64,000 nucleotides of DNA from Acidobacteriota bacterium (lineage in GTDB: Bacteria; Acidobacteriota; Thermoanaerobaculia; UBA5066; Gp7-AA6). The notes below the pieces were generated by a model that had not been told where the DNA came from, searched no databases, and was given only the letters and a program-made list of their open reading frames with translations. Shown here piece after piece: positions 396-59,532 of this stretch. Position 1 is the stretch's first letter; every line of letters starts with the position of its first letter. The stretch lies in assembly GCA_039933215.1 (NCBI GenBank), contig JBDTOO010000005.1, forward strand, positions 22,990 to 86,989, in the 5' to 3' direction. The position numbers were made by a program, and so were the translations under genes.

Positions 396-1247
396 TTACG
401 GGCAGGTCGAGAACGAAGACGTGTCCTGGATGGGCAGGAACGCCTGGTTCTGCGGATTGGAGTAGGTGCGAACCGCTCCCGTCTGGGTGTCGGTGACGGT
501 CAGGTTGACGAGCACGTTGGTGAGCCCGCCGGCGAACGTCCAGTAGCGGGAGTTCAATCCGCAGCCGTTCAAGACCTTGACGACGATCTCGACGTTCGAC
601 GAGGAGAAGAACCAGAAGTAGCCCGTGTCCGACGTGAGCTGGATAGGGGTCCCCGCGCCGGAGGCCGTCGTCGTCTGCCAGTTCGCCGACACGCGGAAGC
701 GGCTGTTCAGGCACATCGAGGTGGCGTTCGGCACGCACGCCGTGACAGCGCCGCACGACAGGGAGAGGAAGTAAGGCCCCCGATCCGCGATGTAGACCGC
801 GTTGGCGACAATCGTCCAAACACCTGTTGTCGGCAACGTGTAGATGATTTGCGCGTTCGTCCCGTCCGGGCCGCCGCCGCTATCGTCGTCGAGAGCGACG
901 GCCGTACCGGCGGGATTTCGCAGGATCAGATACGCGTCCAGAGCCGACGACGACATCGCGATCGTTACGGTCTGCCCTGCCGTTCCTTGAAACGTGTAGT
1001 TGTCGGCGCGAGTCTCGTCGCCGAGTTGGCAATCCTGGGAGTCCAGCGTGCCGTTGACCGATCCGCCGCACGTGATTCCCGACGTGGAGCAGGCGGTAGC
1101 GGAAAGCGGATGGACATTCTTGCTTCCGGCCTTGATCACTTTGCTGAGGGCGATCCCGGGCGACGCCTCCTGAGCGAACGCCGCCGCAGCTAATGCCAGC
1201 GCGAAGACCCCCGCGAGAGGGAGAACCCGGGGGAAAGGACGGATCAT
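396..1247 (-). CDS. Secreted protein: signal peptide + PPC-like beta-sandwich domain + conserved ~100-aa Cys-containing C-terminal domain (same domain as genes at 55.1-58.2 kb)
   Basis: True start is the ATG giving MIRPFPRVLPLAGVFALALAAAAFAQ (signal peptide). The upstream part of the 572-aa track ORF is antisense to PhzF. Middle region has DDDSGGGPDGTNAQ with D.Y.F / G.Y PPC-type motifs. C-terminus ...VKVLNGCGLNSRYWTF...TGAVRTYSNPQNQAFLPIQDTSSFSTCP aligns with the C-termini of the 55452 and 56873 genes. Confidence 0.75.
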   Translation of the reverse strand: MIRPFPRVLPLAGVFALALAAAAFAQEASPGIALSKVIKAGSKNVHPLSATACSTSGITCGGSVNGTLDSQDCQLGDETRADNYTFQGTAGQTVTIAMSSSALDAYLILRNPAGTAVALDDDSGGGPDGTNAQIIYTLPTTGVWTIVANAVYIADRGPYFLSLSCGAVTACVPNATSMCLNSRFRVSANWQTTTASGAGTPIQLTSDTGYFWFFSSSNVEIVVKVLNGCGLNSRYWTFAGGLTNVLVNLTVTDTQTGAVRTYSNPQNQAFLPIQDTSSFSTCP

Positions 1248-52790: not shown

Positions 52791-52870
52791 GGCTTCGCCG
52801 CCGGAGCGGATTTGCGGCTCCGCACGCCGCCGCCCGGCATATGGTGGCGCAAACAGGAGGCTCGACTTCT

Positions 52871-54847
52871 ATGCCGACACCGATTTTCTTCCGGAGGTCC
52901 GTCCGCGCGGCCGCGCTCTTCGTGGCGCTCGCCGTCCCCGGCCGACTGCCCGCCGAGCTGCCGCCCGTGATCTCCCGCGACGTCCTCTTCGGCAACCCCG
53001 AGAAGGCGCAGCCCCGGCTCTCGCCGGACGGCCAGCGCCTGGCGTGGGTCGCGCCCGACAAGAAGAACGTCCTGCAGGTCTGGGTCAAGACCGTGGGCAA
53101 GGACGACGACAAGATGATCACGGCCGACAAGAAGCGCGGCATCCGGCAGTACTTCTGGGCGCAGGACAACAAGACTCTCCTCTACATCCAGGACAACGAC
53201 GGCGACGAGAACTTCCACGTCTTCGGCGTCGACCTCGCGTCGAACAACGTTCGCGACTACACGCCCTACCAGGGCGTGCGGGCGGGCGTCGCGGACATCA
53301 GCCAGGACTTCCCGAACGAAGTCCTGCTCCAGATGAACCTGCGCAACCGGCAGCTGATGGACGTGCACCGCTTGAACCTCGCGACCGGCGCGCTGACGCT
53401 CGACACCGAGAATCCGGGCGACGTGGCCGGCTGGGGCGCCGACTCCCGGTTCCAGGTTCGCGCGGCCGAGGTGAACACGCCGGACGGCGGCACGGAGATC
53501 CGCGTCCGCGACGACGCGAAGTCCCCGTGGAAATCCCTGCTCAAGGTCGGCCCGGACGAGATCGTCGGGTTCGAGGACTTCGCCCAGGACGGCAAGTCGG
53601 CGTACCTCATGTCGTCCGTCGGCACCGACACGGCCCGTCTCGTCCAGCGGGACCTGGCGACCGGCTCCGAGAAGGTCCTGGCGGCCTCGCCCGAGGTGGA
53701 CGCCGGCGCGGTCCTGATCCAGCCGAAGTCCCACGTGGTCCAGGCCGTTTCCTTCGAGCCCGGCCGCTCCACGTGGAAGGTCCTCGACCCTTCCGTGCAG
53801 GGAGACTTCGATGGGATCCGCAAGTTGAACACGGGCGACTTCAGCGTCGTCAACCGCACGGCAGCCGACGACGCCTGGCTCGTCGCCTTCACGTCGGACC
53901 GGGGGCCCGTCTCCTGGTACAAGTGGGATCGCACGGCGAAGAAGGGCACGCTCCTCTTCACCGCGCAGCCGAAGCTCGAAGGCCTTCCCCTCGCCGAGAT
54001 GAAGCCGGTCGTGATCCCGGCGCGCGACGGGTTGAAATTGAATTCCTACCTGACGCTTCCGGTCGGCGTCGCGCCGAAGGCGCTTCCTCTCATCCTGTTC
54101 GTCCACGGCGGTCCCTGGGGCCGGGACACGTGGGGATACAACGGCACGACGCAGTGGCTGGCGAATCGCGGCTACGCGGTCCTTCAGGTGAACTTTCGCT
54201 CGTCCACCGGCTACGGCAAGAAGTTCCTGAACGCCGGAAACCGCCAGTGGGGGCTCAAGATGCAGGACGACGTCGTCGACGCGGCGAAGTGGGCGGTCCA
54301 CCAGGGGGTCGCGGACCCGAAGAGGATCGCTGTGTACGGCGGCTCCTACGGCGGCTACGTCGCGCTCGAAGCGGCGACGCGCAACACGGACGTCTTCGCC
54401 TGCAACGTCGACATCGTCGGGCCCTCGAACATCAAGACGCTGATCGCGTCGATTCCTCCCTACTGGAAGCCGATCCGCGCGAAGTTCGATTCGCGCATGG
54501 GCAACGTCGACGATCCCAAGGACGCCGATCTCATCAAAAACGCCTCGCCGCTCTTCCAGGCGGACAAGATCACCCGGCCGCTGCTGATCGGCCAGGGAGC
54601 CAACGACCCGCGCGTCAACGTGAAGGAGTCCGAGCAGATCGTCGACGCCATCGAGAAGAACAAGGGCAACGTGACCTACGTGCTGTACTCGGACGAGGGC
54701 CACGGGTTCGCGCGCCCCGAGAACCGGATCGACTTCAACGCCCGCGCGGAAAAGTTCCTCGGAAGCTGTCTCGGCGGCCGCTTCGAGCCGATGGAGGGGG
54801 AGAAGATCCCCGGCTCGACCGCGGTGGTGAAGGTCGTCGGCAAGTAG
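52871..54847 (+). CDS. S9 family serine peptidase (dipeptidyl aminopeptidase / acylaminoacyl-peptidase type), secreted
   Basis: Signal peptide. N-terminal propeller. Catalytic GGSYGG and C-terminal ...DEGHGF. Confidence 0.85.
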   Translation: MPTPIFFRRSVRAAALFVALAVPGRLPAELPPVISRDVLFGNPEKAQPRLSPDGQRLAWVAPDKKNVLQVWVKTVGKDDDKMITADKKRGIRQYFWAQDNKTLLYIQDNDGDENFHVFGVDLASNNVRDYTPYQGVRAGVADISQDFPNEVLLQMNLRNRQLMDVHRLNLATGALTLDTENPGDVAGWGADSRFQVRAAEVNTPDGGTEIRVRDDAKSPWKSLLKVGPDEIVGFEDFAQDGKSAYLMSSVGTDTARLVQRDLATGSEKVLAASPEVDAGAVLIQPKSHVVQAVSFEPGRSTWKVLDPSVQGDFDGIRKLNTGDFSVVNRTAADDAWLVAFTSDRGPVSWYKWDRTAKKGTLLFTAQPKLEGLPLAEMKPVVIPARDGLKLNSYLTLPVGVAPKALPLILFVHGGPWGRDTWGYNGTTQWLANRGYAVLQVNFRSSTGYGKKFLNAGNRQWGLKMQDDVVDAAKWAVHQGVADPKRIAVYGGSYGGYVALEAATRNTDVFACNVDIVGPSNIKTLIASIPPYWKPIRAKFDSRMGNVDDPKDADLIKNASPLFQADKITRPLLIGQGANDPRVNVKESEQIVDAIEKNKGNVTYVLYSDEGHGFARPENRIDFNARAEKFLGSCLGGRFEPMEGEKIPGSTAVVKVVGK

Positions 54848-54989
54848 GCCGTCCCGCTTACACGTTCGCCCTCTCTCCGCCGGGGGAGAGGGCGATTTTC
54901 TTTTCGCGGGATCCTTCCGACCTCTCGAGCGCGGCCGACACCTCCGCCTTCTGAGCGGCGCCGACCACGTCCGGTTGCTCTCAACGGGC

Positions 54990-55045
54990 AGACTCCGAAG
55001 GAGGTGTCCTGGATCGGCTGGAACGCGTCCCCGTGTATTGGTGTG
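54990..55045 (-). pseudogene. Degenerate remnant of the conserved C-terminal-domain coding sequence (no complete ORF)
   Basis: GTGTCCTGGATCGGCTGGAACGCGTCCCC resembles the motif GTGTCCTGGATGGGTTGGAACGGCGTGCC found at the 3' ends of all CTD genes. Translation ...DAFQPIQDTSFGVCPL. Confidence 0.35.
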
Positions 55046-55073
55046 TGTCCTCCTGCGGACAACACGGACGCGT

Positions 55074-55418
55074 TCACGGGAGAGTCGCGAGGCCGGCGGC
55101 CGGGCAACTCGAGAACGCGCCCGTGTCCTGGATGGGTTGGAACGGCGTGCCGAGCGGGTTCTCGTAGGTCTTGATGGCACCGGTGTCGCGGTCGACGACC
55201 GTCAGCTCGATCCTGCCGATCTTCGGGGCGGCGATTTCATTGAACCAGAGCGCGCCGTCCGGCCCGACCGTGATCCCGCCCGGGCGACTCCCTTGCGTGG
55301 GAAGGTTGAAATACGTCAGCGTCTGGGCCGGTAGGAGCGTGGCGACGCCCGCCCCGACGAGAGCAAGAAAAACGATCACGATTCCAGAATTCGCCCGCGC
55401 TCCCGACCCGTGATGCAT
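55074..55418 (-). CDS. Truncated paralog: signal peptide + single Vgb-like blade + last ~35 aa of the conserved C-terminal domain
   Basis: MHHGSGARANSGIVIVFLALVGAGVATLLPAQT...GPDGALWFNE...LTVVDRDTGAIKTYENPLGTPFQPIQDTGAFSSCP. Probably a deletion derivative. Confidence 0.45.
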   Translation of the reverse strand: MHHGSGARANSGIVIVFLALVGAGVATLLPAQTLTYFNLPTQGSRPGGITVGPDGALWFNEIAAPKIGRIELTVVDRDTGAIKTYENPLGTPFQPIQDTGAFSSCPAAGLATLP

Positions 55419-55451
55419 GGGATCCTTCCTTTCAATCGGACCAAGGGCGAT

Positions 55452-56819
55452 CTAGGGGCAACTCGAAAAGGCCTCGGTGTCCAGGACGGGTTGGAACGGC
55501 GTGCCGTTCGGGTTCTCGAAGGCCTTGACCGCCCCCGTTTCCCTGTCGACGACCGTGACGACGACGCCGACGTTCGTGAGCCCCGTCACGAACACCCACG
55601 TGCGGTTGTTGACGGCACAACCGTTCAGGACCTTCGCCACGACTTCGACGTTCTGCGAGTCGAAGAATGTGAAGTAGCCGGCGTCTTCCGTGAGAGCGGC
55701 AGCCTGTCCCGGTCCGCTCGCCGACGCGGTCGTCCACCGGGCGGTGACCGCAAAACGATTTCCGCTCAGGCAGAGGGTCGTGACATCCGGGGTGCAGAGT
55801 CCAAGGCCGGTGGTGTATTCGAAGACTCCCTCGGATGTCGCGGCAAAGAGCCTCGCCGGGTTCAGGGGGTCGATGACGAGGGTATTGACGCTCTTCCCGG
55901 GTAAGCCTTCCATGCTCATTGCCGTCCAGCTATTGCCGCCGTCTCTGGTTCTATAGAGGCCTACGACTGTGGTGGCGTAGAGGTTCGCCGGGTTTCGAGG
56001 ATCGATCGCGAGCGCTCCGATCGCACCCGTTCCGGGCAGACCTGCGTTGACCGCAGTCCAGTTCTGTCCGGCGTCCCTGCTTCTGAACACCCCCATGCTC
56101 GTGCCCGCGTAGAGCGTCGCGGGTGCCAGCGGATCGATGACGAGATCAAAGACGGCCAGGCCGTTCAGCCCGACGCTCGACCAGGTGTGACCGGAGTCGA
56201 TGGTCCTGTAGAGACCCTGGTTCCAGAACGTCCCGGCGTAGAGAGTGGCCGACCTCGTCGGATCGACGGTGAGCACTGCGATGTCGGGAGGATTTTGAGC
56301 CATCCCGCTGGATCGCCAGCTCAGCCCGTTGTCCGTGCTCCTGAAGACGCACGGTCCGTCGCACCCGTATTCGTTAGTGCCCACATAGATGGTGGACGGG
56401 TTACCGGGGCTGATAACGAGTGCCGTGACGTCGAAATTGGGAAGTCCCCTGCTGGCCCAGGTCCAGCTGACACCGTCGTTGACGCTTCGAAAAACCGCTC
56501 TGTTCGTAGCGGCATAGAGGTTCCCCGGCCTGGCCGGATCGACAGCGAGTGCCCGTACGGACGCCTCAGGAGTTGCGTCGGAATGGATGAAATTCCATGT
56601 GCTGCCGCTGTCGGTGCTCTTGAACAGCCCCTGGTTGCTGAACGCGTAGAGAATGGACGGGGTCGTCGGATCGATGGCCAAAGCCCCGATGGAATCCCCT
56701 GCCGGTCCGTGCGTGGTCCAGGTGTTGATGCCCGCGGTGGCTTTCCCTCCGGTGAGGAAAAGCAGAACCAAGACCCTCGAGAGAATGGAGAGGAGCGAGG
56801 TTCCAGTCTTTCGGTTCAT
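55452..56819 (-). CDS. Secreted BNR/Asp-box repeat beta-propeller protein with conserved Cys-containing C-terminal domain
   Basis: Start MNRKTGTSLLSILSRVLVLLFLTGG, with GGAGG RBS. Six S-x-D-x-G-x-T-W-type units: STDSGSTW, SVNDGVSW, STDNGLSW, TIDSGHTW, SRDAGQNW and TRDGGNSW. C-terminal domain LCTPDVTTLCLSGNRFAVTARW...VKVLNGC...TPFQPVLDTEAFSSCP. Confidence 0.8.
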   Translation of the reverse strand: MNRKTGTSLLSILSRVLVLLFLTGGKATAGINTWTTHGPAGDSIGALAIDPTTPSILYAFSNQGLFKSTDSGSTWNFIHSDATPEASVRALAVDPARPGNLYAATNRAVFRSVNDGVSWTWASRGLPNFDVTALVISPGNPSTIYVGTNEYGCDGPCVFRSTDNGLSWRSSGMAQNPPDIAVLTVDPTRSATLYAGTFWNQGLYRTIDSGHTWSSVGLNGLAVFDLVIDPLAPATLYAGTSMGVFRSRDAGQNWTAVNAGLPGTGAIGALAIDPRNPANLYATTVVGLYRTRDGGNSWTAMSMEGLPGKSVNTLVIDPLNPARLFAATSEGVFEYTTGLGLCTPDVTTLCLSGNRFAVTARWTTASASGPGQAAALTEDAGYFTFFDSQNVEVVAKVLNGCAVNNRTWVFVTGLTNVGVVVTVVDRETGAVKAFENPNGTPFQPVLDTEAFSSCP

Positions 56820-56872
56820 GAGAGACCTCCAATGAATTGCGGAAGAGGCGTTGTCCCGGCGAGCTCGACGCT

Positions 56873-58207
56873 CTAGGGACAGCTCGCGAAGGCGCCCGTG
56901 TCCAGGATCGGCGGGAACGGTGTGCCGGGCGAATTGGAGTAGCTGCGGGCCGCGCCGGTCTCCACGTCGACGACAGTCAGGACCACGTAGACGTTCGTGA
57001 GCCCCGCCGCGAACACCCAGGTGTGCGAATTGATGCTGCAGCCGTTCAACACCTTCACGACGATCTCGACGTTGTTCGGGCCGAAGAAGGTGAAGTAGCC
57101 GGCATCCGGCGTGATGGCGACCGCCTGCCCGGAACCGATCGTCCCGTTGGCGATCCACTGGGTCGTGACCGCGAACCGTCCGCCGCGCAAGCAGAGTGTC
57201 GTCGCGTCCGGCACGCAGGCATTCGTCCCCTCCGACGTGATCCGCACGAGCTGGTTCCCCGCAGCGAGCCAGACATGGCGGTCCGGTCCCAGGACGAGGG
57301 GGCCGCTGGGCGCGCCGATCCCCCCGGAGATCGGGATCTCCGTGACGACGCCATCGGGTGAAATCCGGCCGATCCTTTCCGTCTGGTCCTCCGTGAACCA
57401 GAGGTTGCCGTCCGGGCCCGCGACGATATGGGAACCGGCGGCGCCGGACGGTACGGGGAATTCGGTGATGGCGCCGGCCGGGGTGATTCGACCGATCGTG
57501 GGCGCCGCTTCCGTGAACCAGAGGTTGCCGTCCGCGCCCAGCGAGAGGTCCTTGGCCCAATTCTCGTCTCGGATGGAAAATATTCTTGTATGGCCCGCGG
57601 CGTCGATCCGTCCGATGGCGGCCCCGTAGTATTCGCTGAACCAGACGTGACCATCGGAACCGGCGGCGATCCTAGAAGGGTCGGCGTGGGTCACGGTGAA
57701 TTCGGTGATGACTCCGGCCGGCGTGATCCGGCCGATCCTCGAGCTCGACCTCTCGGTGAACCAGACATTGCCGTCGGGGCCCGCCGCGATCGCCAACGGA
57801 AATCCGTCCGTCGTCGGGATCGAAAACTCGGTGACGACCCCGGCTGTGGAGATCCGTCCGATGGCCCCGCGGACCTCGGTGAACCAGAGATTTCCGTCCG
57901 GGCCGGCGGCGATGCCGCCGAGCTCGGTAACTCGATCGGGTGTGGAGAATTCCGTCACATCACCCGCCATGGTCATGCGCCCAATGCGGCCTCGGTTTCC
58001 GACGTACCAGAGGTTGCCGTCCGGGCCGGCCGCGAGGCCGATCACGGAGCCGGGAATCGGGAATGCCGTGAAAGTCTCCGCAGAAGCGGCGGCGGCGAAG
58101 CCGGCAGCCAGAGCGGCAAAGGCGGAGACCAGGACTCGGAAGCGGCGGTTGCCGCCGCGCTTTGCCACCCGGGTTTCATCCGCTCCGCTTTTCGTGGCGC
58201 AATTCAT
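56873..58207 (-). CDS. Secreted Vgb/streptogramin-lyase-like 7-blade beta-propeller protein with the same conserved C-terminal domain
   Basis: Start MNCATKSG...RFRVLVSAFAALAAGFAAAASA. Repeats GPDGNLWYVG, GPDGNLWFTE (three times), GPDGNVWFTE, GSDGHVWFSE and GADGNLWFTE. C-terminal domain ACVPDATTLCLRGGRFAVTTQW...VKVLNGC...TPFPPILDTGAFASCP. Confidence 0.8.
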   Translation of the reverse strand: MNCATKSGADETRVAKRGGNRRFRVLVSAFAALAAGFAAAASAETFTAFPIPGSVIGLAAGPDGNLWYVGNRGRIGRMTMAGDVTEFSTPDRVTELGGIAAGPDGNLWFTEVRGAIGRISTAGVVTEFSIPTTDGFPLAIAAGPDGNVWFTERSSSRIGRITPAGVITEFTVTHADPSRIAAGSDGHVWFSEYYGAAIGRIDAAGHTRIFSIRDENWAKDLSLGADGNLWFTEAAPTIGRITPAGAITEFPVPSGAAGSHIVAGPDGNLWFTEDQTERIGRISPDGVVTEIPISGGIGAPSGPLVLGPDRHVWLAAGNQLVRITSEGTNACVPDATTLCLRGGRFAVTTQWIANGTIGSGQAVAITPDAGYFTFFGPNNVEIVVKVLNGCSINSHTWVFAAGLTNVYVVLTVVDVETGAARSYSNSPGTPFPPILDTGAFASCP

Positions 58208-58254
58208 TTTCAGTTCCTTTCGATTTCGGAAAGACGGTCCATGTGTGGGGCGGG

Positions 58255-58704
58255 CTAGTTCACCGTCACGGAAAAATTGCCGCAGCCCTTCCCGGAGGGG
58301 GTTCGAACGCACGGCGTATACGGCCCCGGCGGGACATTCCCCGGAACCACGATTCCCACGCGCGTGCCGTTGAAGACGGATTCCTGGACGCTCATTTCGA
58401 ATACCGAAGCTCCCGCCTCGAAGGTGGCGACCGGGTCCGGAAACAAGTTTTTTCCACGGATGATCCAACCGGCGCGCGGGTAATAGTTCCTCGTCGGCTC
58501 CGCGGACGTGACCATCGGCACGCCGGAAGCGGGTGGTGGAAGACCCGGAATTGATGTGACCTCGCTATGCGGCTGGGTCGGAGCATACGGGTCGTCTTTG
58601 CAGGCAGAAACCAGAATTGCCGACGCGGCCAGGATCACCAGCGCCGCTCTGGCCAGGACGGCTCTCCCCTTTGGGACGGTTGCCATTTCGGGCACGGAAC
58701 GCAT
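58255..58704 (-). CDS. Small lipoprotein, possible IPT/TIG-like beta-sandwich
   Basis: AAGGAG RBS. Lipobox ILVSAC. ...SAEPTRNYYPRAGWIIRGKNLFPDPVATFEAG... Confidence 0.55.
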   Translation of the reverse strand: MRSVPEMATVPKGRAVLARAALVILAASAILVSACKDDPYAPTQPHSEVTSIPGLPPPASGVPMVTSAEPTRNYYPRAGWIIRGKNLFPDPVATFEAGASVFEMSVQESVFNGTRVGIVVPGNVPPGPYTPCVRTPSGKGCGNFSVTVN

Positions 58705-58715
58705 TCGAGACTCCT

Positions 58716-58745
58716 TTCGGACGATCGCTTTTCGGCGTCCGATCG
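58716..58745. promoter_or_regulatory. Inverted repeat TCGGACG-N12-CGTCCGA in the 92-bp divergent intergenic region
   Basis: tcggacgatcgcttttcggcgtccga lies between the lipoprotein start (58704) and the regulator start (58797). Candidate operator; function not established. Confidence 0.3.
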
Positions 58746-58796
58746 TGAATCGGCGGCCTCGGGGATGTCCTTGTAGAATCCTCAGAAAGTCCTCAA

Positions 58797-59426
58797 ATGC
58801 GATTCGATCTGGGAACCGTCACGCTCGACACGGATCGCCACCAGGTGTTTCGCGGCGCCCAGCCCCTGCACCTCTCCACGAGGGCTTTTCAGCTGCTGTC
58901 GATGCTCGTGGAGAACCGCCCGCGCGCTCTTTCGAAGGACGAGCTGCAGCGAGCGCTCTGGCCGGAGACGTTCGTGTCCGACACGAGCCTCACGACTCTC
59001 ATCAACGAGATCCGCTCGCTGCTCTCCGAGACCGCGAAGGACGCCCGACTCATCCGCACCGTGCACGGCTACGGCTACGCCTTCGAGGGCGCGACCTCTC
59101 CGGCGCCGCCTCCCGGGTGCCGCCTGATCTGGGGCGAGCGAGAGGTACCGCTCGCAGAAGGCGAGAACATCCTCGGACGCGACCCGGGCGCCCGCGGCTC
59201 CATCCCCGACGCTTCCATTTCTCGCCGCCATGCCCGGATCACGGTCCACGGCGACACGGCGACGCTCGTGGACCTGATGAGCAAGAACGGCACATGGGTC
59301 GGAGACCACCGTGTGACGGAGCCGATCGCGTTATCCGACGGCGACGCCGTGCGGTTGGGTCTCGTCCGTCTGGTCTTCCGCGCGGCGTCGGAAACCTCTT
59401 CTTCCACGACCAAGACCGTCCGCTGA
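58797..59426 (+). CDS. One-component regulator: OmpR/PhoB-type winged-helix DNA-binding domain fused to C-terminal FHA domain (no receiver domain)
   Basis: N-terminus LSTRAFQLLSMLVENRPRALSKDELQRALWPETFVSDTSLTTLINEIRSLL...IRTVHGYGYAF is the trans_reg_C family. C-terminus ...ENILGRDPGA...ISRRHARITVHGDTATLVDLMSKNGTWVGDHRV is an FHA domain. Confidence 0.8.
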   Translation: MRFDLGTVTLDTDRHQVFRGAQPLHLSTRAFQLLSMLVENRPRALSKDELQRALWPETFVSDTSLTTLINEIRSLLSETAKDARLIRTVHGYGYAFEGATSPAPPPGCRLIWGEREVPLAEGENILGRDPGARGSIPDASISRRHARITVHGDTATLVDLMSKNGTWVGDHRVTEPIALSDGDAVRLGLVRLVFRAASETSSSTTKTVR

Positions 59427-59532
59427 GAAAGGCAGTCAGTCACGCGACGGCTGCAGGCCGTGGTGAGAATCGCACCCGATTGACAGGCTACTTTCCCGGA
59501 AACAGAATGACGTTACCGTCTCCGGAGACCCC

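Follow-up and report, generated by a model that had tools for sequence, protein, structure and literature searches.

The window analysed here, a stretch of 64,000 nt in which position 1 is the first letter, has a G+C content of 68.6% and corresponds to a metagenome-assembled genome that NCBI labels Acidobacteriota bacterium (locus tags ABI592_02120 to 02130), with the nearest relatives of its S9 peptidase found in the Thermoanaerobaculia. Between 54.9 and 58.7 kb, the minus strand carries four ORFs arranged head to tail, and NCBI proteins exist for all three genes upstream of the last and shortest of these. The original prediction described this short ORF as a signal peptide, a single propeller blade, and the end of a C-terminal module, followed by a further 3'-end remnant lacking an ORF and lying next to full-length copies, four genes being counted besides the remnant. 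The composition of the ORF is borne out, with a module tail of 37 residues, and the remnant is present at 54985-55035, however only three full-length module genes were found, of which two are adjacent and the third lies 54 kb away. The features of the locus are as follows:

396-1244, minus strand: third full-length module gene, a PPC (pre-peptidase C-terminal) domain followed by the module (399-737)
52841-54847, plus strand: S9 peptidase gene, convergent to the module genes
54866-54895, plus strand: intrinsic terminator of the convergent S9 peptidase gene, bounding the region of the putative relic
54908-54918, minus strand: GGAAGGATCCC for a second time, exact, 66 nt past the Cys-Pro codons of the remnant and not followed by a start codon
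54985-55035, minus strand: degenerate module 3' end of 17 in-frame codons, HGDAFQPIQDT-SFGVCP, with one codon deleted (nhmmer E=3e-4)
55074-55418, minus strand: short ORF of 114 aa, comprising a signal peptide, one virginiamycin B (Vgb) lyase-type blade, the last 37 aa of the module, an 8-aa extension, and a TGA stop codon
55077-55100, minus strand: 8-codon extension AAGLATLP after Cys-Pro, where the full-length genes have their stop codon
55101-55211, minus strand: last 37 codons of the module, about the last 3 of its roughly 10 predicted beta-strands (tblastn E=4e-15)
55203-55328, minus strand: single beta-propeller blade of the virginiamycin B lyase type, residues 31-72, GPDGALWFNE...KIGRI (Pfam PF24684)
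55326-55418, minus strand: predicted Sec-type signal peptide, about residues 1-31, MHHGSGARANSGIVIVFLALVGAGVATLLPA (sequence pattern)
55419-55429, minus strand: Shine-Dalgarno-like GGAAGGATCCC, directly 5' of the short-ORF ATG and 22 nt past the stop codon of the upstream gene (read from the sequence)
55452-56819, minus strand: full-length neighbour of 455 aa, signal peptide, BNR/sortilin-type propeller, and complete module (55455-55796); NCBI protein MEO8430275.1
56873-58207, minus strand: full-length neighbour of 444 aa, signal peptide, Vgb-lyase-type propeller, and complete module (56876-57217); Pfam PF24684, E=1.1e-80
58255-58704, minus strand: predicted lipoprotein of 149 aa

The propeller of the gene at 56873-58207 scores 271 bits against PF24684. 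The start codon of this gene is uncertain, since the NCBI protein (MEO8430276.1, 431 aa) is 13 codons shorter than the 444 aa called in the Logan contigs. Upstream of the cluster, a winged-helix/FHA regulator lies at 58797-59426. Elsewhere, in L091, L093, and L094, a BNR+module gene sits in a recurring cluster with a divergent ECF sigma factor and usually a Ser/Thr kinase, together with 1-3 lipoprotein-like ORFs of 140-220 aa that are without Pfam hits and several of which end in ...TGYWPL. On the other side of the locus, homologues of the S9 peptidase, up to 85% identical, occur in 79 genomes among wholly different neighbours, with no module and no synteny with the window at these S9 peptidase loci.

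The short ORF and the downstream remnant

The short ORF has a strong ribosome-binding site 3 nt upstream of its ATG, and its signal peptide aligns with the N-termini of the full-length Vgb-like proteins P0036 and P0099. Its blade matches PF24684 (E=6.9e-12) over profile positions 168-209 of 290 with 45.2 bits, below the 50-bit cut-off, with the NCBIfam Vgb(A) and Vgb(B) models also giving partial matches, and the blade signature GPDGxLWF...IGRI is present as GPDGALWFNEIAAPKIGRI at residues 52-70. Blade and module tail meet in frame at about 55212-55215, the residues across the junction reading …KIGRIELTVVDR…, and the tail is 70% identical at the protein level to that of gene 55452-56819, with 78% nucleotide identity to 55455-55565. 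These matches support the original reading of the ORF as a truncated paralog. An alignment by MAFFT placed the blade motif LWFxE...IGRI (55203-55260) opposite module positions 64-84, WVFxxGLTNVxV, just before the junction; this superficial likeness between blade and module may have guided a deletion, or may be a coincidence.

The ORF covers module positions 78-114 only, with residues 1-77 missing, and thus holds 37 of the 114 module residues and 1 of about 7 propeller blades. All seven of the family-invariant residues that fall within its tail are kept. Across the whole module, 7 of 26 invariant columns and 1 of 4 conserved cysteines are retained, the remaining 19 columns and 3 cysteines being missing. 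The stop codon that follows Cys-Pro in all three full-length module genes is absent, and no disabling mutation lies inside the ORF, which has a GC3 of 0.82 and codon usage typical of real genes. A search of Rfam over 54000-59500 gave no RNA element, the single match, at 59400-59464 and beyond the putative relic, being below threshold (E=0.055); a hairpin past the stop codon is not significant (z=-1.42), and no terminator-like site was found 3' of the short ORF on the minus strand.

The remnant at 54985-55035 is the fifth-best nhmmer match (E=3e-4, with the next match at 0.14) to a profile built from four module tails, and is matched by tblastn with E=2e-4 to 6e-4 when P0099 is the query and with only E=0.44 when the two neighbouring modules are used. 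Its frame differs from that of the short ORF, there is no credible gene around it, and the sole ORF over it runs antisense through the S9 terminator. Its nearest nucleotide match is the short-ORF tail, at 86% identity compared with 76-78% for the other copies, and it keeps F101, D106, T107, F110, and C113. The exact 11-mer GGAAGGATCCC occurs twice in the window against 0.10 expected, with none of 100 shuffles reaching two copies or more, and the copy at 54908-54918 may be a relic of another gene or translation start, or of a duplicated unit.

Similarity, conservation, and predicted fold

With the two neighbouring modules as queries, tblastn recovers three complete copies (55455-55796, 56876-57217, and 399-737), the partial copy at 55101-55211 (E=4e-15), and, as a weak fifth match, the remnant. 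The 14-nt motif said in the original prediction to be shared by all copies on the coding strand is over-represented, with six occurrences in the window when up to 2 mismatches are allowed (expected, 1.46; none of 100 shuffles gave as many), and five of the six are module copies. It is exact in only three copies however (at 421, 55004, and 55123), with 1 and 2 mismatches in the two adjacent full-length genes, and lies on the plus strand, antisense to the minus-strand module genes.

The similarity had further been held to be nucleotide-level and not just protein-level, a claim that fails the test put forward with it; here, eight confidently called genes of the window supplied the codon frequencies from which the chance of drawing the same codon twice was computed for each residue identical between two copies. 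Identical codons at identical residues number 11-41 against 9.3-38.9 expected (z = -0.01 to 2.07). Codon identity thus equals the codon-bias expectation, so that the nucleotide similarity follows from amino acid conservation, nucleotide constraint beyond coding is rejected, and the 14-nt motif simply encodes the conserved PF-x-P-I/V-x-DT under strong codon bias. The copies are 61-78% identical at the DNA level, dS between them (Nei-Gojobori) is 0.5-1.0, and the longest exact tract common to any two copies is 19 nt, values that do not support the "ongoing" duplication originally proposed; nothing among the copies points to a recent duplication or to gene conversion. The large ORFs of 47-64 kb, which reach about 7 kb around the locus, include no recombinase, transposase, or reverse transcriptase, which together with the shortness of the exact tracts speaks against cassette-like recombination. 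Tandem duplication was also considered as an origin and rejected, with Tandem Repeats Finder and a repeat finder showing only a 22-nt shared motif at 119-nt spacing and no extended unit.

A word-seeded search covering 5.8 billion protein clusters gave only the identical sequence as a full-coverage match to the short-ORF protein, the other matches covering the blade only. Two Logan contigs, both 100% identical to the window, are the only source of the exact protein, and NCBI holds no protein with this sequence. The finding of no same-architecture protein besides the identical sequence favours the original view of the ORF as a fragment. The closest BNR+module homologues of the same layout are about 46-50% identical, and at the four loci examined the next gene is an unrelated one, with the short ORF absent; a metagenome scan with the BNR+module protein gave a best match of 38% identity. 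This lack of conservation is weak to moderate evidence, as no close relative is present in the collections searched. The two Logan assemblies (4,153 and 3,085 nt) come from different sequencing runs, and each covers the short ORF and the remnant without a single difference from the window; since they are identical, and since the paralogs are too divergent for mis-joining, the truncation is in the organism. Both of these independent contigs end at window position 54616, inside the S9 peptidase gene, which suggests an assembly-graph branch at that point.

The complete module is predicted by AlphaFold2 with a pLDDT of 95.6 and a pTM of 0.88, as a fold of about ten strands. For the short ORF, modelled from an alignment combining blade and tail homologues, a pLDDT of 62 and a pTM of 0.45 were obtained, with the last module strand not formed and the blade part predicted at a pLDDT of about 80-85.

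Origin of the fragments and competing readings

The finding is real but probably ordinary, with 54985-55418 best explained as an old, lineage-specific, non-recombining relic produced by internal deletions, that is, by ordinary pseudogenisation. The analysis shows the homology of each piece, how the pieces are ordered and oriented, how old the copies are, and the lack of orthologues; the deletions, the ancestral architecture, and the loss of function are inferred. The region would be the leftover of one or two secreted-protein genes similar to the two intact upstream neighbours, with an ancestral layout of signal peptide, beta-propeller, and a cysteine-containing C-terminal module of ~114 aa. 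About 1 kb would have been lost internally and in frame, bringing the first blade of a Vgb-type propeller directly before the final three beta-strands of a module and giving a 114-codon ORF with its ribosome-binding site, start codon, and signal peptide kept. A second deletion would have cut another module end down to its final 17 codons, which lie 66 nt downstream in a different frame and are decaying. Measured on P0099, the first deletion would have taken about 343 codons, from blade 2 to module residue 77, and the second about 120, from the linker to module residue 96. As originally proposed, deletions must have occurred. The short ORF may still be translated, however a folded, functional product is unlikely.

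Our preferred source of both pieces, held tentatively and at slightly short of an even chance, is one gene with two tandem modules. In an exhaustive profile search, each of the best 150 of 10,398 representatives carries at least two module copies, with P0036, P0099, and P0142, among these best 150, combining a Vgb-type propeller with two modules. P0099 consists of a signal peptide, Vgb propeller, module, linker, and module, and matches three collinear pieces of 55418-54985: its residues 16-62 match 55346-55209, residues 406-449 (the first module tail and the start of the linker, CPAAALANL compared with CPAAGLATL) match 55211-55080 with 66% identity (E=9e-17), and residues 570-586 (the second module tail) match 55032-54985 (E=6e-4). 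A two-module ancestor would explain both the missing stop codon after Cys-Pro and the second same-strand tail 66 nt downstream. The 37-aa tail, scored against the module tails of 150 two-module proteins, is closer to terminal than to internal modules (49.7 and 45.7 bits respectively), with the same trend seen for the three terminal modules of the window, and the linker match to P0099 (5 of 8 residues) is no outlier among 138 alanine-rich linkers. It is because of the terminal-like tail and the unexceptional linker that the two-module ancestor is put no higher, with the terminal-like score in particular weakening it. Derivation from two separate genes, or from a local duplication of the tail, is the less probable alternative.

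Several features of the region are those of bacterial pseudogenes and internal-deletion remnants, namely partial domains, an ORF ~75-80% shorter than its full-length paralogs, an out-of-frame scrap downstream, no orthologues found, and a position at the edge of a paralog cluster; the ORF also shows the partial homology with domain-breaking truncation by which pseudogenes are recognised. Unlike typical cases, the first deletion here would be in frame, with the translation signals and signal peptide intact and expression possible. The similarity to the virginiamycin B lyase family (PF24684, represented by the neighbour at 56873-58207, P0099, and P0036) lies in the signal peptide and first blade, which align with the N-termini of these proteins. 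With one of about seven blades and 45.2 bits against a cut-off of 50, however, neither a propeller nor an active site is possible. The metal-binding catalytic residues of Vgb are known from the S. aureus enzyme, and the region expected to carry them is absent from the short ORF. Likewise, its last 37 residues are homologous to the 114-aa module family with all invariant residues there kept, whereas the lack of residues 1-77 leaves it short of a full domain.

The intact ORF, and the retention of every invariant residue that it covers, are explained by a recent deletion and would also be explained by selection on a small protein. The short ORF might accordingly be read as a genuine small secreted protein of ~83 residues when mature, a blade fused to the last beta-strands of the module and maintained by selection, perhaps because it partners or competes with module-bearing proteins. 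The strong ribosome-binding site, signal peptide, in-frame junction, gene-like codon usage, and blade pLDDT all favour such a protein, yet we consider it unlikely, with the same architecture found nowhere else among the 5.8 billion clusters of the word-seeded search, no counterpart downstream of the closest same-architecture BNR+module homologues, and no NCBI protein. Furthermore, its parts are fragments of domains that normally need seven blades and about ten strands, its cysteine is a lone one, and the overall AlphaFold2 confidence is low, with the last module strand not predicted. A more speculative variant, to which we give little credence, is that the cluster records shuffling of the module onto different passenger domains by illegitimate recombination, with the 114-aa ORF an expressed and still-acting by-product; the three terminal beta-strands of the secreted fragment might then pair with, or compete for, the target of the module. 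A similarly slight chance is given to the remnant being a random resemblance, with the short ORF the sole real fragment. The tblastn value of 0.44, the ~50-nt length of the match in a 69% GC genome, and the strong codon bias of PFQPIQDT would fit this, however the gap between its nhmmer E-value and that of the next match, an exact 14-mer, its location on the same strand directly downstream of the short ORF, and the five conserved residues kept by its 17 in-frame codons argue otherwise.

Silent-cassette gene-conversion systems include pilE/pilS and vlsE. Like these and the diversity-generating retroelements, the locus has partial, promoterless gene-end copies near full-length genes, and an active duplication or cassette system, in which the short ORF and the remnant are donor or acceptor cassettes exchanging the 3' ends of module genes, would account for five 3'-end motif copies on one strand, four of them within 2 kb, and for the occurrence of fragments beside full-length genes both here and in an unrelated contig, L095. 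This reading is already largely refuted, and we regard it as highly improbable. Unlike the known cassette systems, the locus has no long near-identical tracts, synonymous sites are near saturation (dS 0.5-1.0), codon identity is no higher than codon bias predicts, DNA identity is 61-78% with exact tracts of 19 nt or less, and no recombinase or transposase occurs among the large ORFs of 47-64 kb. Unlike a diversity-generating retroelement, it has no reverse transcriptase among those ORFs and a repeat pair of only ~50 nt and ~86% identity, with no template/variable repeat pair bearing adenine-specific differences seen in an informal look at the locus. At the level of assembled contigs, the two assemblies from separate runs are 100% identical to the window and show no structural variation. 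The same assemblies bear on the least credible reading, an assembly artefact in which the junction arose from mis-joined reads of paralogous genes. In its favour, the window comes from a metagenome-assembled genome in which three to four 3' ends are paralogous. Against it, these paralogs are too divergent to collapse, and the assemblies of two different runs span both junctions, over 3.1 and 4.2 kb, at 100% identity to the window. In sum, the observation behind the original prediction is real and partly confirmed, and its interpretation is partly supported, with the region read here as the relic of ordinary pseudogenisation.

A like pattern of decay is seen in the unrelated metagenome contig L095 (positions 3-332, 363-908, and 866-2626). 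A module gene there ends in ...ADTSAF and a stop codon, without the terminal Cys-Pro, and is followed by a truncated Vgb-type ORF of 181 aa, the end of which overlaps the start of the full-length two-module gene encoding P0099.

The module family

The family to which the tail belongs (alignment A1) comprises 10,398 representative proteins at E<=1e-3 and 5,516 at E<=1e-30. The module is ~114 aa long and all-beta, with about ten predicted strands, 26 invariant columns, and conserved cysteines at C1, C9, C60, and C113, and occurs as the sole domain after a signal peptide, as tandem copies, or C-terminal to various passenger domains (PPC, BNR, and Vgb). It has no Pfam or NCBIfam model and no sequence match in the PDB, a Foldseek search of the PDB with the pLDDT-95.6 model gave no match (best E=0.41, TM 0.33), and a literature search by sequence motif returned nothing relevant. 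The module therefore looks like an undescribed secreted domain.

Taken alone the relic matters little, as a gene remnant specific to the lineage of one uncultivated, Thermoanaerobaculia-like member of the Acidobacteriota. It does serve as a warning for annotation, in that the short ORF seems expressible yet consists of two domain fragments. Its indirect value lies in drawing attention to a widespread module without a description or a structural relative in the libraries searched, which is more notable than the relic itself, and, as in contig L095, the relic shows that clusters of module genes lose and rearrange their members.
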